From a virus (lineage: Duplodnaviria > Caudoviricetes): a stretch of 48,991 nucleotides of DNA. Below the pieces are notes generated by a model. That model was not told the DNA's origin. It searched no databases and saw only the letters and a list, made by a program, of their open reading frames with translations. The stretch lies in the IMG/VR virus record IMGVR_UViG_3300017658_000264, positions 1 to 48,991 of that record. The stretch is one strand, 5' to 3'. The translations under genes and the position numbers were made by a program. Positions 12,396 through 47,011 of this stretch are shown here, piece by piece. Position 1 is the first letter of the stretch, and every line of letters begins with the position of its first letter.

Positions 12396-12932
12396 ATGAG
12401 CATCTACGTTTTGCGCTCCGCGGAACTGGTCAAAATCGGCTACAGCGCCGACCTGCATAAGCGCGTCGGGGCTATTGTCTCAGGGTCTCCAGTAGCAGTC
12501 GAATTTGTTGGGCATATGCCAGGTGATCGAGACGTTGAGGCGCATCTGCACCAACGGTTCGCGGCGCATCGGTTCTCCGGAGAGTGGTTTGTAGAGACCG
12601 AGGAGATGCGATCGGTCTTCGCCGCGATACTCACCCCCAAGATGCCGCAACCGTTGCCGCCAAAAGGGCCTGTCGGCCGGCGCGACCGTGACCACTCGGC
12701 AGTGCTAGTCTTCAAAGAGCGGCTTCGTGAAGCCGGCGCTCGTCTATTACCAATGGCAAACCACGCTGAACGCACCATCGCTCTTGCGGATGCGCTCGGC
12801 TGGCCGAAGAGCCGGGTGAAGGACGTTTACCACGGCGATCTGCGGGTCTCCCTGCGTGCCGTCGAGACCGAAGAACTCAATGCGTTCCTGCTCGCGCCGG
12901 AGCTTAAGGCCGAGATCGAGGAGGGCGAGTGA
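12396..12932 (+). CDS. second GIY-YIG (T5orf172-like) fusion protein
   Basis: IYV..., VKIGYS, E..LH.RF...R..GEWF motifs. Confidence 0.8.
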   Translation: MSIYVLRSAELVKIGYSADLHKRVGAIVSGSPVAVEFVGHMPGDRDVEAHLHQRFAAHRFSGEWFVETEEMRSVFAAILTPKMPQPLPPKGPVGRRDRDHSAVLVFKERLREAGARLLPMANHAERTIALADALGWPKSRVKDVYHGDLRVSLRAVETEELNAFLLAPELKAEIEEGE

Positions 12933-14113
12933 TGCAGATGCAACGTATCGAAGTGCTCGACTTGTTCAGCGCAGCGGCCGGCGGCTGGTCACTCGGTATG
13001 CATCGAGCTGGCTTCGAGACCATGGCCGCCTGCGAATTCGTTGATTGGCGCCGCGCGCTCTACTCGCAGAACAACCCAGGCGTCAGGATCTATGACGATG
13101 TTTGCACCCTCACGGCAGATCGAATTCTTCGAGATTTCGGACGACTTCCGTCAGTCGTCGTCGGAAGCCCTCCCTGCCAAGACATCAGCAGCGCAAACAC
13201 CAAAGGCAAAGGCGTCGAAGGCGCGCGCAGCGGCCTCTACTTCGAAGCCATCCGCATCATCGGAGAGTGCCGTCCTCGTTGGTTCGCTCTTGAGAACAGC
13301 TCTAATCTCCGAACTCGGGGCGCTGACGCCGTCCTCGCTGCGCTGGAAGCACTCGGCTACACCTGCTGGACGTTCGTGGTTCGTGCTGGAGACATCGGCG
13401 CCAATCACGAGCGGCCCCGAAGCTGGCTCATCGGATGCGACCTCAATCAAATTGCCGACGCCGATAGCTGGCAACAGTGGCAGCAATCAGGGCGGCGGGA
13501 TGGGGCGCACCGGGCCAATCCGACATTCCACCAAGACGATGATACGGCAAAGCCTCTTGGCGCTGGGCACGTCTGCGAACACGGCATCAGATGGCCTTGG
13601 GCCTGCGACGAATGCGACCAAGCTGCCTACCCCGGTAAAGAACGACCGGAAGATGGAGCCGTGGTCGGAAGCCTACGCCCGTCGGCGATCGCCGAAGCTG
13701 GATGCTCTGATGGACGGAGCGGCGAAGCACGAGATGATGCCGACGCCTCTGAAGAGCGACCGGAAGGGCTCGCTTGGCGTCATGAGTGGCGGCAAGGTGA
13801 AATCTCAAAACGTCCCAACGTTTCTCCGCGATCAGAAATGGGACTACGCACGGCAGATTGCGGCCGCGTTGCAGAGTGGCGGGCTGACTGGTCCCTCGAT
13901 GACCTTGCCCGTCACCTACAACTGGATGATGGGCTTTCCGCCTGGGTGGCTGGCGCGCGCATTGCGGTCGGCGGTCCAAAAGGGACTTCTGCAGCAAGTC
14001 TCATCGTCGAAGCGTTCGGGGACGCCGTCGTTCCGCAAATCCCAGAAGCAATAGGTCGCGCGATCCTTCGGACCGAGCGCGCGCTAGCCGTCGCTCACGG
14101 GAGGGCAGCATGA
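12932..14113 (+). CDS. C5 cytosine DNA methyltransferase, alpha polypeptide
   Basis: Motif I (LDLFSAAAGG), IV (GSPPCQ), VI (LENS), VIII (HERPR), X (FGDAVVPQ); motif IX is missing from this frame. Confidence 0.9.
   Translation: MQMQRIEVLDLFSAAAGGWSLGMHRAGFETMAACEFVDWRRALYSQNNPGVRIYDDVCTLTADRILRDFGRLPSVVVGSPPCQDISSANTKGKGVEGARSGLYFEAIRIIGECRPRWFALENSSNLRTRGADAVLAALEALGYTCWTFVVRAGDIGANHERPRSWLIGCDLNQIADADSWQQWQQSGRRDGAHRANPTFHQDDDTAKPLGAGHVCEHGIRWPWACDECDQAAYPGKERPEDGAVVGSLRPSAIAEAGCSDGRSGEARDDADASEERPEGLAWRHEWRQGEISKRPNVSPRSEMGLRTADCGRVAEWRADWSLDDLARHLQLDDGLSAWVAGARIAVGGPKGTSAASLIVEAFGDAVVPQIPEAIGRAILRTERALAVAHGRAA
13041..14054 (+). CDS. nested alternate-frame methyltransferase beta polypeptide (TRD plus motif IX)
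   Basis: 337-codon open frame inside the MTase; repeated (L/M)PTP units; NWMMGFPPGW resembles motif IX; true start uncertain. Confidence 0.7.
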   Translation: MIGAARSTRRTTQASGSMTMFAPSRQIEFFEISDDFRQSSSEALPAKTSAAQTPKAKASKARAAASTSKPSASSESAVLVGSLLRTALISELGALTPSSLRWKHSATPAGRSWFVLETSAPITSGPEAGSSDATSIKLPTPIAGNSGSNQGGGMGRTGPIRHSTKTMIRQSLLALGTSANTASDGLGPATNATKLPTPVKNDRKMEPWSEAYARRRSPKLDALMDGAAKHEMMPTPLKSDRKGSLGVMSGGKVKSQNVPTFLRDQKWDYARQIAAALQSGGLTGPSMTLPVTYNWMMGFPPGWLARALRSAVQKGLLQQVSSSKRSGTPSFRKSQKQ

Positions 14114-17799: not shown

Positions 17800-18360
17800 A
17801 TGGCAAGACGAGGACGGAAGGCAAAGCTCGGCGGGATCGATCTGGCGGCAGTCGGTCACAGCCAGGCGAAGCCCGAACTCAGCGAGATTGATAACCCGCT
17901 CTACAATCGTGCCCACGATGGCGAGACCTGGAACCCGAAGAAGATCATGGGCGTGAAAAACATGAAGGAGAGCGCGCTCGTCGTGCTGGAGCAGCGCAGG
18001 CTCATCGATGCCGCCCAAGTGCAGGCCGGCGAGCGATTCCGGCGCATCTGGGAAGCCCTCGGCGGCGCTGGCGCTGGATCGTTCGACTATAGCCGCGAGC
18101 CGGTCGATGGTGGGGGCCCGCGCTCGGCGCTGTCCGACCGGCAGATACAGGCCGGCATAGACCTTGCCGATTGCCGGCGCGTCCTTGGCATCGGCTATGA
18201 CGTCATGGTGAAGGTGGCCGGCGAGGGGCGGGCGGTTGCCGATCTCGCACAGAGCAAAAATCTCCAGCGGGCGTATGTAGAAATGCTTAAGCAGGGGCTC
18301 ACCGCACTGGCTATGCATTTCGGCTATGAGAACAATGGAAAACTAAGAAAATCTGCTTGA
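17800..18360 (+). CDS. putative late-gene activator/antiterminator (Q position)
   Basis: Last early gene; GAGGA RBS; C-terminal HTH-like helix ending L..GL..LA.HFG. Confidence 0.65.
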   Translation: MARRGRKAKLGGIDLAAVGHSQAKPELSEIDNPLYNRAHDGETWNPKKIMGVKNMKESALVVLEQRRLIDAAQVQAGERFRRIWEALGGAGAGSFDYSREPVDGGGPRSALSDRQIQAGIDLADCRRVLGIGYDVMVKVAGEGRAVADLAQSKNLQRAYVEMLKQGLTALAMHFGYENNGKLRKSA

Positions 18361-18420
18361 ATAGGGATTCCACTCGGAACCCGAATAAGGTATACGAAAT
18401 CTATAGTGGTGATTTGCGCT

Positions 18421-18667
18421 TAGGGCGCTGATAGTTTGCCACGACGGCACAGGTTGGGTTCGCTCAGCCGAGAACGTGGATGCAAGTCTGAAGGACCGTT
18501 ACAGTAGACTTGCCAGAAGTGGGATCGGTCAGAAACGCGCGATTGGTTCAAAAGCAGAAGCCCACGGAACCGTTTCAATACCAGGGGAAGCCGCTGCGCC
18601 CCGCCCATCGAAGTGACGGATACGCAACCGTCGCCAGCGGCCAAGCCGGGAGGGTAGGCCGGCGCCA
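18421..18667 (+). ncRNA. unrecognised multi-helix structured RNA candidate ending in CCA
   Basis: At least seven helices in an interval with no + strand ORF; directly abuts the 5' end of tRNA-Gln; 5' boundary approximate. Confidence 0.55.
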
Positions 18668-18742
18668 TCAGGCTTAGTTCAGCGGTAGAGCGTCAGATTT
18701 TGGATCTGAATGTCCCTCGTTCGAATCGAGGAGCCTGAGCCA
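18668..18742 (+). tRNA. tRNA-Gln(UUG)
   Basis: Full cloverleaf: TCAGGCT/AGCCTGA acceptor, TCAGA-TT TTG GA-TCTGA anticodon arm, TTCGAAT T-loop, G-CCA. Confidence 0.95.
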
Positions 18743-18747
18743 GTTCA

Positions 18748-18822
18748 CGCAGAGTAGCCAAGTGGTAAGGCCTCCGGCTCATAACCGGATCATCGCGGGT
18801 TCAATTCCCGCCTCTGCAACCA
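18748..18822 (+). tRNA. tRNA-Met(CAU), initiator-like
   Basis: Cloverleaf; TCCGG-CT CAT AA-CCGGA; TTCAATT T-loop; C1:A72 mismatch; A-CCA. Confidence 0.93.
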
Positions 18823-18823
18823 A

Positions 18824-18908
18824 TCGGGAAGGCGGGCCTGTCGTCGTTTCGTAGCGCAAGCTGGCGGCGAACCCCGCGTAAGTTGAGGGATTCTCCTTCC
18901 CGACCCCA
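18824..18908 (+). ncRNA. unrecognised tRNA-sized rod-like RNA candidate ending in CCA
   Basis: TCGGGAAGG/CCTTCCCGA closing stem, inner stems, AGC-GCAA-GCT tetraloop. Confidence 0.45.
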
Positions 18909-18932
18909 TACGGCATAGCCGGCATTCATTCT

Positions 18933-18968
18933 GCCCGTCGCCTTCACTGGTGGCGGGCTTTCGCATTT
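18933..18968 (+). terminator. intrinsic terminator after the RNA cluster
   Basis: GCCCGTCGCC/GGTGGCGGGC stem followed by TTTCGCATTT. Confidence 0.65.
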
Positions 18969-19159
18969 CAGGAGTAAGGCTTAAGGCGGTGCAGAAGAGC
19001 CCGGCAGGCTAGGCCAGTTCTGGTGTCGGCGCCGTTCTTCTTCATGGCAACAACGGCATTGGCGGAGACATCGAGTAGCCTGGCGCATTGTGCGTCCGAA
19101 CGGGCAAGACCTGCGGCCTTCATTTCAGCAAGCCAGCGCGTGAACTGTTCGGCTGTCAT
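18968..19159 (-). CDS. small HTH protein
   Basis: SDAQCARLLDVSANAVVAMKKNG; GAGGG RBS. Confidence 0.6.
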   Translation of the reverse strand: MTAEQFTRWLAEMKAAGLARSDAQCARLLDVSANAVVAMKKNGADTRTGLACRALLHRLKPYS

Positions 19160-23097: not shown

Positions 23098-23247
23098 ATG
23101 GCCTGTGGATCGTGTGAAAAGCGTCGGCAGATGATTGCCGAGGCGCGCAAGCAGGCTGGCGTCAAGGGTGTGGTTAAGGTTCTGCCGAAGGTCGCGCGGG
23201 ATGTCGTGAAGAACCCGCCGAAACTCAGGGACAAGCGCAATGGGTGA
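23098..23247 (+). CDS. small basic protein with CxxC
   Basis: MACGSCEKRRQM...; 49 aa between terL and portal. Confidence 0.5.
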   Translation: MACGSCEKRRQMIAEARKQAGVKGVVKVLPKVARDVVKNPPKLRDKRNG

Positions 23248-25081
23248 TGTGATCCAGCTTCGGACGAATGACAGCCTGCGGTCTGTCGTCGCCGGCCTCG
23301 GCGATCCGCTGCGCGACAAAATGGCGACTGCGGCCTATGTGCTGCAATACCTTGATGATTACCAACTCGCCGCGATCTACAAGAGCAACTGGCTCGGTCG
23401 GAAGATCGTTGACATTCCCGCCATGGATGCCGTGCGCAAGGGGCGCGATTGGCAGGCCGAACAGGATCAGATCGAGCTTATCGAGGCTGAGGAGAAGCGC
23501 CTCGGGTTCTGGAACAAGCTGCTTGAAGTGAAGGTCAAGGCGCGCCTGTGGGGCGGCGCTGCGCTGTACATCGGTACTGGCGAGACTGATCTGATGCAGC
23601 CGCTCAACGTCGAGGCCATGGCAAAGGACAGGGTCAAGTACCTGACCGTCCTTTCTCGCCGCGACGTGAGCGCCGGTCCTATCGAGCAGGACGTTCTTTC
23701 CGAGTTCCATGGGCGGCCGGCCTATTACGAAGTGACCGGCAATGCGTCCATGGTGCGCATTCATCCGTCCCGACTGGCAGTGTTCGTCGGCGCTCCGCAT
23801 GGTGACAGCCTGCTCGGCATGGGGCCGAACCAAGGCTGGGGGGATAGTATCATCGAGGCCGTCTATTCGGCCATGAAGAACGCCGATGCGACCGCGGCCA
23901 ACATCGCCTCTCTGGTCTTCGAGGCGAACGTGGATGTCTTCCGCATCCCGGATTTCATGGCGAGCCTTGCCGATCCCGCCTACCAGACGAGGCTGCTCGA
24001 TCGCTTCACGTTGGCTGCCACGGCCAAGGGTATCAACAAGGCGCTGCTGCTCGACAAGGAAGAGGAATACGACCGCAAGCAGGTTACGTTTGCCCAACTG
24101 CCCGAAGTCATGCAGACGTTCTTGCAGATGGCCGCCGGCGCCGCCGATATCCCGGTTACGCGCCTGCTGGGTCAGTCCCCGGCCGGCATGAATGCGACCG
24201 GCGAATCCGACATGAACAACTACTACGACCGGGTGTCGTCCATCCAGTCTCTGGAAATGACGCCGGCCCTCTATCGTCTCGACGAATGCTTGATCCGCTC
24301 GGCGCTCGGCAGCCGGCCGCCTGAAATCTTCTACGAGTGGTCTCCGCTCAAGCAGATGACAGAGAAGGAGCAGGCCGAAATCGGCAAGATGAATGCCGAG
24401 ACCGCCGAAATCCTCGGCCGCACGGGCATTTTCACGTCTGAGGAGCTGCGCACCGTCGTCGGCAACCAGCTTGTCGAAAGCTCATTCTATCCCGGCCTCG
24501 ATCAGGCCATGTCCAGCACCGGCAATAGTTGGGAAAAGGAATTCGAGGAGGCACAGCAAGCGGAGGCGGAAGCCAAGGCCAATGCGGAGCAGGCGCGCCA
24601 GCAGGCGAACGATGCCGCTCCGCGCACGCTCTATGTCCGCCGTGACGTCCTGAACGCCGCCGAAATCATTGCATGGGCCAAGGGGCAGGGCTTCGAAACC
24701 GTACAGGACGGCTTGCACGTCACCATCATCCACACCCGCACGCCGCTCGACTGGATCAAGGTTGGGCAGGCTGGCGAGTGGTCTTCGGATGAGGACGGCG
24801 AAATGACTATCGCGCCAGGTGGCCCGCGCATCATCGAGCGCTTCGGCGAAGCTGTGGTGCTCCAGTTTGCTTCCTCCCGGCTGACCTGGCGTCACGAGGA
24901 TATCAAGCGGCTCGGCGCGGAGACGGATTATCCAGAGTACCAGCCGCACGTCACCATCTCGTGGAATGCCGCCGGTCTCGAACTGTCGAAGATCGAACCT
25001 TACACGGGCAAGATCGTGCTTGGGCCGGAGATATTCGAGGAGGTCAAGGAAGACTGGCAAGCCAGCATCCGTGAGGAATGA
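23240..25081 (+). CDS. portal protein (DUF1073-like) fused to a C-terminal Acb1-like 2H phosphoesterase
   Basis: IVDIPA.D, IHPSR, IPVTRLLGQSPAGMNATGESD..NYYD; C-terminal LHVT and PHVT motifs. Confidence 0.9.
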   Translation: MGDVIQLRTNDSLRSVVAGLGDPLRDKMATAAYVLQYLDDYQLAAIYKSNWLGRKIVDIPAMDAVRKGRDWQAEQDQIELIEAEEKRLGFWNKLLEVKVKARLWGGAALYIGTGETDLMQPLNVEAMAKDRVKYLTVLSRRDVSAGPIEQDVLSEFHGRPAYYEVTGNASMVRIHPSRLAVFVGAPHGDSLLGMGPNQGWGDSIIEAVYSAMKNADATAANIASLVFEANVDVFRIPDFMASLADPAYQTRLLDRFTLAATAKGINKALLLDKEEEYDRKQVTFAQLPEVMQTFLQMAAGAADIPVTRLLGQSPAGMNATGESDMNNYYDRVSSIQSLEMTPALYRLDECLIRSALGSRPPEIFYEWSPLKQMTEKEQAEIGKMNAETAEILGRTGIFTSEELRTVVGNQLVESSFYPGLDQAMSSTGNSWEKEFEEAQQAEAEAKANAEQARQQANDAAPRTLYVRRDVLNAAEIIAWAKGQGFETVQDGLHVTIIHTRTPLDWIKVGQAGEWSSDEDGEMTIAPGGPRIIERFGEAVVLQFASSRLTWRHEDIKRLGAETDYPEYQPHVTISWNAAGLELSKIEPYTGKIVLGPEIFEEVKEDWQASIREE

Positions 25082-45522: not shown

Positions 45523-46599
45523 CTATGCCGTGACCGCGAGCGATCGCTTTGGGGTGGATCGCAGCCAATTCTTCATGGGAATTTCGAAGAAGCGGTAGAT
45601 AACGTAGCTCATGAGGAAGGTCCCGCCAGCGAAGGCGGCTATCCGCAACGCAAAAGGTCCAATCCAAGACACGTTCTGATAGACGAACCAGTGGGATAAA
45701 TAGATGGAATAGCTGAGGTTCCCAAGCAGGCGTGCGGTAGGGACAACGGCGAGCGGTAGCGAACTGGAGTAGGCGAAGAAGACTGCTGCGGAAGCGATAG
45801 CGCTCAGCGCAATGTATGCCGCCCCTCCCTCGAAAAGGTTCATCGGGAAGATTGGCGTAAACAGGGATATTGCTCCCACGAGGATGATCGAAACCACCCA
45901 TCCGTGTTGCCACTCGGCGTTTCGCGCCCTGAAAATTATGATGCCCGACAAGAAGAATGGCGCGAAGGTGAGGGGCATAGAGTATCGTCCCCAAAAATCC
46001 GGCGAGTCTGGGGCGTGAAGAGTAGCAATCGCTGTCTGCTGAGAGAATACAAGTGCAGCCAACACAAGAGCAAGCGTTGTCACGCGAGCCTTTGCGGTCA
46101 GAACGCAAACTACCGGGAACACCACGTAAAACGCCAGTTCAATCCCAAGTGACCATGCCCCGGGGGTATTTGACAGCGCGCCGGGCAGCTGTAGAAAAAA
46201 CAGGCCTGTGCCTGTAAAGAACGCCTTGGCAAGACTTTGATTGCCGTACCTGATTTGGAAATACACGAACGACAACGCGGCCATAAGCAGCAATAGAGGA
46301 ATGATCCTCGCAATTCTGTTGCGGTAGAACTCTCTCAGCGCATCCGGGCCTATACCGTCTTCGAAAGTCCTCGAATATCGGATCATCAATACGAGAGCCG
46401 AAAGAACGAAGAACATGTAGACCCCGAACATCGATACGCTCTGAAGGTCGTATTTTGTCGACCAGTAGATGAAGTGATAGGCGGCAACGCCAATGGCGCA
46501 CAGACCTCGCAGCAATTCGAGCGCGTAGAGTTTTTGATCCTTTATCGGCAACTGATAGTACCTCGGCGTTAATGTGCCCGCTTTACCACTGATCTGCAC
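45523..46599 (-). CDS. acyltransferase-3 family (OafA-like) membrane O-acyltransferase
   Basis: LRG.....V..YH, GV..FFVLS, FY.NR.ARI.P, WSL..E..FY, G.LSYS.YL.H and Y...E.P motifs; start uncertain. Confidence 0.9.
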   Translation of the reverse strand: MQISGKAGTLTPRYYQLPIKDQKLYALELLRGLCAIGVAAYHFIYWSTKYDLQSVSMFGVYMFFVLSALVLMIRYSRTFEDGIGPDALREFYRNRIARIIPLLLLMAALSFVYFQIRYGNQSLAKAFFTGTGLFFLQLPGALSNTPGAWSLGIELAFYVVFPVVCVLTAKARVTTLALVLAALVFSQQTAIATLHAPDSPDFWGRYSMPLTFAPFFLSGIIIFRARNAEWQHGWVVSIILVGAISLFTPIFPMNLFEGGAAYIALSAIASAAVFFAYSSSLPLAVVPTARLLGNLSYSIYLSHWFVYQNVSWIGPFALRIAAFAGGTFLMSYVIYRFFEIPMKNWLRSTPKRSLAVTA

Positions 46600-47011
46600 A
46601 ACCTGAAAGCGGGCCGGCAGGGACTTTCAGCCTTCTGTCGGCCCTAGCCTGACCCCGTCAGGGGGGGCGATGCTCGGCTGCCTCTCGATATATCAAATTG
46701 AGACCCGGGAACGCCTCGTATCGCTCAACCGGGTCCCCTCACGATCTTACGCAGTACCCACCGTGAGCGGTCCATCTTGCACCGCAAGCGGTTAGGTGGG
46801 CAATCCGCCCGACCGGCCTAGCCGCAAAAAAGCGGCCGGCAGACGAGTGGCTATCTGCCAGCCCAAACCGTCTGGAAGACTAGGAAACCAGACGGGCCTC
46901 GCTCTATAGCATAATCCAACCTCAAGGACATAACCATGCGCGTTCATGCTTCCGACTGCGGCCTGCATAACTTGCCGGCCAAGATGCCGATGGCTTGCGA
47001 TTGCGGGGTCG

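Follow-up and report, generated by a model that had tools for sequence, protein, structure and literature searches.

Introduction

ROOL and GOLLD, as described in PMC5737381, are structured non-coding RNAs of phages and prophages that contain pseudoknots and are often located near tRNAs; ROOL averages 581 nt and GOLLD is larger. The element analyzed here, module B (18578–18663), is located in the late leader of an IMG/VR provirus record, whose whole stretch of 48,991 nt is referred to as the window. It shares phage origin, a pseudoknot and tRNA proximity with ROOL and GOLLD, but at ~90 nt it is not a multistem RNA of several hundred nucleotides, it gave no covariance-model match and, unlike these RNAs, it was encountered solely among alphaproteobacterial genomes and phage contigs. 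Another phage H-type pseudoknot is pseudo-ToxI, an RNA decoy of type III toxin-antitoxin systems. Both are potential neutralizers, in trans, of a defence protein, whereas module B is single-copy and GC-rich, carries two extra hairpins and has no cognate toxin identified.

Theta ribozymes, like module B, are small pseudoknotted phage RNAs beside tRNAs, often tRNA-Met and often at the 3' end, according to the account in PMC10879173. However, module B is without the P3, L3 and P1.1 elements of HDV and theta ribozymes, only 2 nt being present between the P2 5' strand and the P1 3' strand in 64/64 copies, a spacing that belonged to the search filter. It is also without the catalytic C of theta J4/2, with 0–2 unpaired nt before the P2 3' strand in 62/64 copies. 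In the 10 copies with an upstream tRNA, 6–8 nt separate G1 of module B from the end of that tRNA, compared with a distance within about 1 nt in theta ribozymes, and module B, unlike the latter, is also found 5' of tRNAs. With xrRNAs, as presented in PMC5760640, module B shares a pseudoknot and, before it, a short 5' leader that is single-stranded and constant in length; the xrRNAs belong to eukaryotic RNA viruses, whereas module B differs in sequence and junction architecture and any exonuclease resistance would be putative. Finally, the setting of module B, rather than module B itself, resembles the GafZ/lambda Q module described in PMC11150451, in which a regulator gene (in the window, that of a putative antiterminator) is followed by a promoter whose -35/-10 spacer is conserved, then by a long untranslated leader and a terminator-like hairpin. 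As a phage RNA motif, module B is compact and covaries well, and assays of it are cheap; it would be notable as a new class of ribozyme, as an xrRNA from a bacterial phage or as an RNA factor in counter-defence, if the corresponding reading were true.

Results

Late leader of the window

The interval 18421–18667 and two tRNAs are located upstream of the terminase genes. The gene preceding the interval (17800–18360, + strand) encodes a protein of 186 amino acid residues, which matched Pfam DUF6456 (E 8e-4, short of the curated cut-off) and phrog_21451, a family of unknown function, and whose nearest ESM Atlas cluster was DUF6456 (score 0.94, with the family on 40% of the members); the search against PDB sequences gave 0 matches. 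The gene was called a putative late regulator in the earlier note, and this is probably right. DUF6456 annotations are tied to GafA in one passage of PMC9638019, and GafZ is described in PMC11150451 as an antiterminator that is homologous to the C-terminal part of GafA and binds between -35 and -10. The 186-aa protein may thus be regarded, by inference, as a putative GafA/GafZ-related antiterminator candidate. Its nearest relative (locus L018) is 97% identical, and the regulator and cassette of L018 recur in a Shinella fusca genome (L100).

When the window was aligned with 18 loci carrying a related regulator, a putative late promoter (18368–18407, +) proved to be conserved. This alignment revealed a -35-like TTCCAC (18368–73, +), a conserved spacer GGAACCCGA (18376–84, +), a -10-like TATACG (18391–96, +) and, 11 nt from it, a second -10-like TATAGT (18402–07, +); a consensus promoter scan called 0 sites at this position. 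This arrangement resembles the geometry of Q-type promoters, and we infer a promoter of this type.

Both tRNAs were found by the tRNA and Rfam scans on the + strand, namely tRNA-Gln(UUG) at 18668–18742 and tRNA-Met(CAU) at 18748–18822. The latter has ends (C1:A72, GCAACCA) that we take to be initiator-like, and its anticodon stem is without three G-C pairs. A further non-coding module with a terminator-like hairpin (18824–18968, +; z -2.45) follows, with a closing stem at 18824–31/18896–903 (+) and the hairpin, which has a weak U tract and gave no call in the terminator scan, at 18933–58 (+). Pieces of 18824–18968 recur in L003–L005 and L018.

Such leaders repeatedly contain cassettes whose closing stems are conserved and whose interiors vary (window 18824–18903, L003, L005, L009, L013 and L018), one type in the window and a second in L003, L005 and L009, which suggests further unnamed RNA families. 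Approximately 85–145 nt past the regulator stop, L003/L004 and L006 carry a tRNA-like mini-element with an acceptor-like stem and a T-arm-like hairpin; a compensatory change distinguishes L003 from L006, and neither Rfam nor ARAGORN called the element. In rhizobial prophages, non-coding RNA cassettes and initiator-like tRNAs make up the late leaders as shuffled arrays, and such RNA cassette and tRNA cargo is missed by protein-centered anti-defence screens.

Two modules in the interval 18421–18667

The interval had been described in the earlier note as one densely paired, unrecognized RNA of ~250 nt without a + strand ORF. The helices listed there are all present in the sequence: CCACG (18439–43)/CGTGG (18475–79) around the UUCG hairpin 18452–69; GCAAGTCT (18482–89)/AGACTTGC (18506–13); GTGGG (18519–23)/CCCAC (18561–65) enclosing ATCGGTC/GATTGGT; GCCGCTG (18590–96)/CAGCGGC (18635–41) enclosing GTGACGG/CCGTCGC; and the terminal GCCGG/CCGGC (in 18645–63), followed by GCCA (18664–67). 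The density of pairing was not above chance (z -0.54; 58/200 shuffles folded equally well), and the separate z-scores were -0.07 for module A and +0.25 for module B, the pseudoknot of which cannot be scored by ViennaRNA. A 55-aa ORF with a TTG start (18510–18677) does exist, but nothing marks it as a gene. No Rfam family covered the interval at the gathering score or at E≤10 and no tmRNA was found by ARAGORN, in agreement with the description of an unrecognized RNA distinct from tmRNA. When 18361–18667 was used as a BLASTN query, annotated phages gave no match and three plasmid records matched in the module B part only. Instead of a single RNA unit, the interval comprises two modules, and the conserved unit is ~90 nt long.

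Module A (18433–18577, +) consists of three predicted hairpin domains with A-rich linkers, the helices of which were seen in the sequence. It was found only as identical or near-identical copies, always joined to module B, and its structure is therefore a prediction. Its second setting is a phage with a NusG-like regulator, a different 3' flank and no tRNA behind (L054 type). Module A was present in 0/18 of the related-regulator loci, where the leaders otherwise carry different cassettes; no match was found in five Shinella genomes, and 401 genomes gave one weak match of 31 nt. A 17-nt module A pattern matched 12 times; one match was an identical L054-type copy, and the remaining 11, inside a coding region, were rejected as chance. 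The single match of a structured pattern was the same L054-type copy. In one RNA-library contig, module A shows one change from G-U to G-C and another that breaks a pair. The loop GAAACG (18532–37) is perfectly complementary, over 6 bp, to the 3' linker CGTTTC (18571–76), and this pairing is a possible extra pseudoknot.

Fold and covariation of module B

The conserved unit of module B is about 80–110 nt and, as judged from the aligned copies, its fold is a three-stem H-type pseudoknot with a 3' hairpin. It begins with the single-stranded leader AU-NNN-A (18578–18583, +), identified by comparing copies: AT was found at -6/-5 in 58/64 copies and A at -1 in 62/64, and the copies found without imposing the leader gave 46/52 and 50/52, respectively. 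In P1 (18584–18602, +), GGGG (18584–87) pairs with CCCC (18599–602) around a loop formed by AA, the P2 5' strand (18590–96) and CG, with the consensus GGGG/CYCC across copies. P1 cells were paired in 100% of cases (44 sequences), with G-U changes only and no double-sided change; P1 had been imposed in most scans and was present in 21/24 and 4/4 loci of the scans leaving it free.

In the pseudoknot helix P2 (7 bp, 18590–96/18635–41, +), 6/7 pairs show double-sided change and 96.8% of cells are paired; the 64 copies contain 23 haplotypes, and two to four Watson-Crick pair types are seen at 6/7 positions. The P2 5' strand is followed across copies by 2 nt ending in an invariant G and then by a linker of 10–13 nt (10 nt in the window). 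This linker precedes the variable hairpin P3 (18613–19/18628–34, +), which lies within P2 and folds next to the P2 3' strand in 62/64 copies. The last part (18642–18663, +) comprises the junction CAA, with the consensus C-A(-A) and an invariant C, and the hairpin P4 (18645–50/18658–63), whose loop is AGGGUAG in the window and mostly NGGG(W)AG across copies; covariation in P4 was observed as double-sided change in 2/6 pairs, with 91.2% of cells paired.

The pairing percentages and double-sided changes come from 44 copies aligned with MAFFT, which were selected for diversity and include three from outside the 64. For the whole fold, 95.6% of cells were paired and 63 cells were double-sided, with 8/17 pairs changing on both sides. 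None of 500 shuffles (a control that ignores relatedness) reached the score, and slid partners were paired in 34–51% of cells. The G-U pairs on the + strand fix the strand of module B. Covariation, which the earlier note had proposed as a check, bears out its claim of a structured RNA under selection for module B; module A offered only near-identical copies. A CGCCC loop had also been proposed to pair with GGGCG at 18423 or with the terminal GGGT loop. The loop does pair, but the partner of its CCCC is the adjacent GGGG (18584–87), which had been missed, while the partner at 18423 is missing in other copies; no covariation that would link the L4 GGG to the C-run or the 5' leader was seen by eye in the aligned copies.

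Distribution of module B

Sixty-four distinct copies of module B, mostly without module A, were counted under one filter in phages and Rhizobiales genomes after pattern scans of viral contigs, genomes and metagenomes. True copies made up 22/40 and 21/24 of the matches in viral contigs, with more among a further 102, and 22/74 of those in genomes; metagenomes contributed 25 loci. The matches discarded as chance (18/40, 52/74, 2/24 in addition to one truncated copy, and most of the 102) were those in which P2/P4 do not form. Outside the 64 stand four full copies (L111, L179, L196 and L214) and four 5'-truncated ones (the second site of L132, L150, L177 and L180). The copies without the 5' half, at L132:3797–3887, L150:1167–1225, L177:1501–1581 and L180:1501–1580, suggest recombination within the motif.

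Genomes with module B belong to Rhizobium, Shinella, Ensifer, Mesorhizobium, Phyllobacterium, Oricola, a Stakelama MAG and unclassified proteobacteria. The covariance-model search matched 3/151 genomes in the family sample (one the center, one a remnant) and only the center among 151 in the class sample; module B is therefore rare in the genome samples searched. No Rfam 15 family matched module B in 40 loci at the gathering score or in seven divergent loci at E≤10. Alpha-r14-like RNAs near two module B loci were judged a coincidence. No literature description of module B was found, with the proviso that the motif files of PMC5737381 and part of PMC10690425 could list one; its motif strings were absent from six supplementary files of PMC10690425 and from the supplement of PMC10085705. 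The comparison of copies thus points to a real, apparently undescribed RNA motif of ~90 nt, of an already known kind, namely structured phage RNAs near tRNAs.

The CCA at the 3' end

As the earlier note stated, GCCA (18664–67, +) ends exactly where tRNA-Gln begins (18668). RNase P cuts at tRNA 5' ends, and a cut at 18668 would free the upstream RNA. A free NCCA-3' end had been proposed on this basis, the RNA serving as a tRNA mimic or an anti-defence decoy. When the copies were compared, GCCA proved to be a spacer that is not conserved. Among the 64 copies, a CCA abutting the tRNA 5' end was found only in the window copy and the identical L286; among the 38 distinct tRNA 5' contexts of all loci compared, it precedes the tRNA in two. 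A CCA within 8 nt after P4 was found in 12/64 copies, at varying offsets. The window copy has a private P4 mismatch, G at 18658; of the other 63 copies, 62 carry C at this position, or A in those of the 8-nt-loop type, and one carries U. The ViennaRNA probability of P4 was 0.0 in the window and 0.9 with the common base at 18658. In the predicted fold of the window, a long-range helix pairs the CC of the CCA with 18424–25. The T-loop motif, searched with the T-arm/T-loop consensus, was present in 0/64 module B copies and nowhere in 18421–18667. The tRNA-mimic reading is therefore not supported, given that the CCA is not conserved and the T-arm is absent; the decoy idea survives for module B, but without the CCA.

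It is accordingly highly improbable that one RNA of ~250 nt is freed by RNase P and mimics a tRNA through its NCCA end. At least two phages and three RNA-library contigs do carry modules A and B jointly, and in the window and L054 the flanks are predicted (0.55–0.57) to pair as a closing helix. However, that helix itself would pair the CC of the CCA, and the other A + B cassettes (L054 type and RNA-library contig X21) have different 3' ends and no tRNA behind; the L054-type 3' flank is also found behind module B without module A (L285), and that of X21 is another one.

Genomic neighborhood of module B

Unrelated alphaproteobacterial phages carry module B either in a lambdoid late leader or in a Mu-like head module, where it lies between the FluMu_N and gp36 genes; L002, L090 and L131 showed no clear phage neighbors in the available DNA. 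It comes after NusG-like, DUF6456-like or other, unnamed regulators, with terminase genes downstream, and is present in 3/18 related-regulator loci. DUF892 genes stand directly upstream in the late leaders of L042, L132 and L135.

This placement bears on whether module B is a put-like nascent-RNA antitermination element of the late operon, which appears quite unlikely. Put is independent of the regulator family, as is module B, and module B does precede terminator-like hairpins and terminase genes in late leaders. However, its distance from the promoter ranges from ~20 nt (L018) to deep within head modules, 15/18 close relatives keep the same promoter without module B, and these phages already have a gene for a candidate protein antiterminator.

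A tRNA or a CAU-anticodon remnant, mostly fMet-like, flanks module B on either side in 26/64 copies. The CCA end of an upstream tRNA lies 0–2 nt before AU in 10/64 copies, a stop codon lies 0–3 nt before AU in 16/64, and a downstream tRNA starts 4–12 nt after P4 in 11/64. An ORF of unrelated kinds starts <50 nt after module B in 11/64 copies; a riboswitch was rejected on these grounds, no consistent 5' position being found. Tad2-like genes begin 28 and 223 nt after module B (L085 and L295, respectively), an Acb2/Tad1 gene 25 nt after it (L204), and a sub-cut-off Acb2/Tad1 match is found at 489 nt (L287). A known sponge gene is thus near 4/64 copies, of which L287 is the weakest, with no background rate to compare. 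We give very little weight to the suggestion that module B is an RNA-only anti-immunity sponge, in which the processed pseudoknot would serve as an aptamer, either for an immune signal of nucleotide type or for an enzyme of host defence, and would be the RNA counterpart of the Tad1/Acb2 and Tad2 proteins found in the same cargo slots.

The CAU-anticodon tRNAs or remnants beside module B (18748–18822 in the window and 24 others) mostly have initiator-like GCAACCA ends. Their anticodon loop is invariant and their stems are highly varied, none having three consecutive G-C pairs adjacent to the loop; they could be nuclease-evading or decoy tRNAs.

Possible roles of module B

Six RNA runs contain part of 17800–19000. 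The contigs of three RNA runs (three studies) and one probable DNA run cover only 18424–18663, and X19 has two short contigs, of 83 and 87 nt, that extend over module B alone. These RNA-library contigs, which may include DNA and from which ends, strand and level are unreadable, give a weak hint of module B RNA. They come from relatives with differing flanks, and the limit at 18424–18663 may reflect flank divergence.

Module B has a defined fold, is independent of its neighbors, occupies a late-operon position and is linked to tRNAs; it is a self-contained motif that is mobile among the late operons of phages. As to what it does, we tentatively, and with some reserve, favor a processed, decay-resistant small RNA of ~90 nt that acts in trans as a counter-defence decoy. 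In the window phage, modules A and B would be co-transcribed from the late promoter ahead of the two tRNAs. RNase E would cut at the AU leader, also trimming the upstream tRNA or 3' UTR; the leader is read as an RNase E site because a tRNA CCA or a stop codon immediately precedes AU. AU is described as enriched at Rhodobacter RNase E sites in PMC6238624, and PMC8682795 reports cleavage 2 nt past stop codons. The 3' end would be released by RNase P or RNase E, the CCA of the window copy would be a spacer, and the knot with its 6-nt leader would withstand 5'-3' decay, leaving the invariant P1, the junction and the GGG loop as a putative binding surface for a host defence component.

Action in trans is favored because the neighbors on both sides are interchangeable, and it is backed by the Tad1/Acb2 and Tad2 neighbors and by phage tRNAs, which, as described in PMC11555353, counter tRNA-cutting defences. 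It is weakened by the presence of a sponge gene near only 4/64 copies and by the T5 tRNA-rich regions, for which the same source describes few known anti-defence genes. The fixed AU distance (58/64), which RNase E alone does not require, weakens the RNase E step, and the small-RNA reading is also weakened by the lack of double-sided change in P1 and by the broken P4 of the window copy. Modules A and B are on single contigs in three RNA libraries, and module B may consequently stay joined to module A in the window lineage.

The 6-nt leader also agrees with an xrRNA-like shield in cis, in which RNase E would remove an upstream tRNA or gene and the knot, as the new 5' end, would guard the late mRNA or cargo behind it against RNase J; this is possible but less probable. 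Its length before P1 falls within the 5–7 nt of xrRNA leaders, and flaviviral xrRNAs are described in PMC5760640 as halting exonucleases 5–6 nt before P1 and as blocking RNase J1 too. A full-length RNase J-like gene (365–380 bits, below the cut-off of 400) was found in five host genomes, and an ORF starts 15–45 nt past module B in Mu-like phages and before Tad1/Tad2/HNH genes. However, in the 11/64 copies, including the window, with a tRNA 4–12 nt downstream, RNase P would sever module B from its cargo, and the short X19 contigs contain module B only.

Compared with the released small RNA, a new class of small self-cleaving ribozyme that would process the late transcript, as theta ribozymes do at phage tRNA 3' ends, is doubtful. 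Size, pseudoknot, invariant junction and covariation are features by which candidates were picked in PMC10085705, tRNA-Met association is common to theta ribozymes (PMC10879173), and A is found at -1 before G1 in 62/64 copies. However, ten motifs chosen on such features gave 0/10 cleavage according to PMC10085705, and the 6–8 nt between G1 and the tRNA end contrasts with ±1 nt for 77% of theta ribozymes in PMC10879173. Module B is often upstream of the tRNA, no Rfam ribozyme was present in 40 neighboring loci, and no known core was found in module B. The simple core patterns of the hammerhead and twister ribozymes, glmS, SRP and the fluoride riboswitch each matched 0/64 copies.

Other genes in the window

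The portal protein gene (23240–25081, +) encodes a C-terminal Acb1 anti-CBASS domain (PF23474, E 3e-38, residues 462–608). A C5 DNA methylase ORF (12929–14113, +; 394 aa) is overlapped in another frame by an ORF of 337 aa (13041–14054, +) with no Pfam match. Near the tail and lysis genes, an Acyltransferase_3 gene is located on the opposite strand (45526–46602, -) and is likely a surface-modifying moron.
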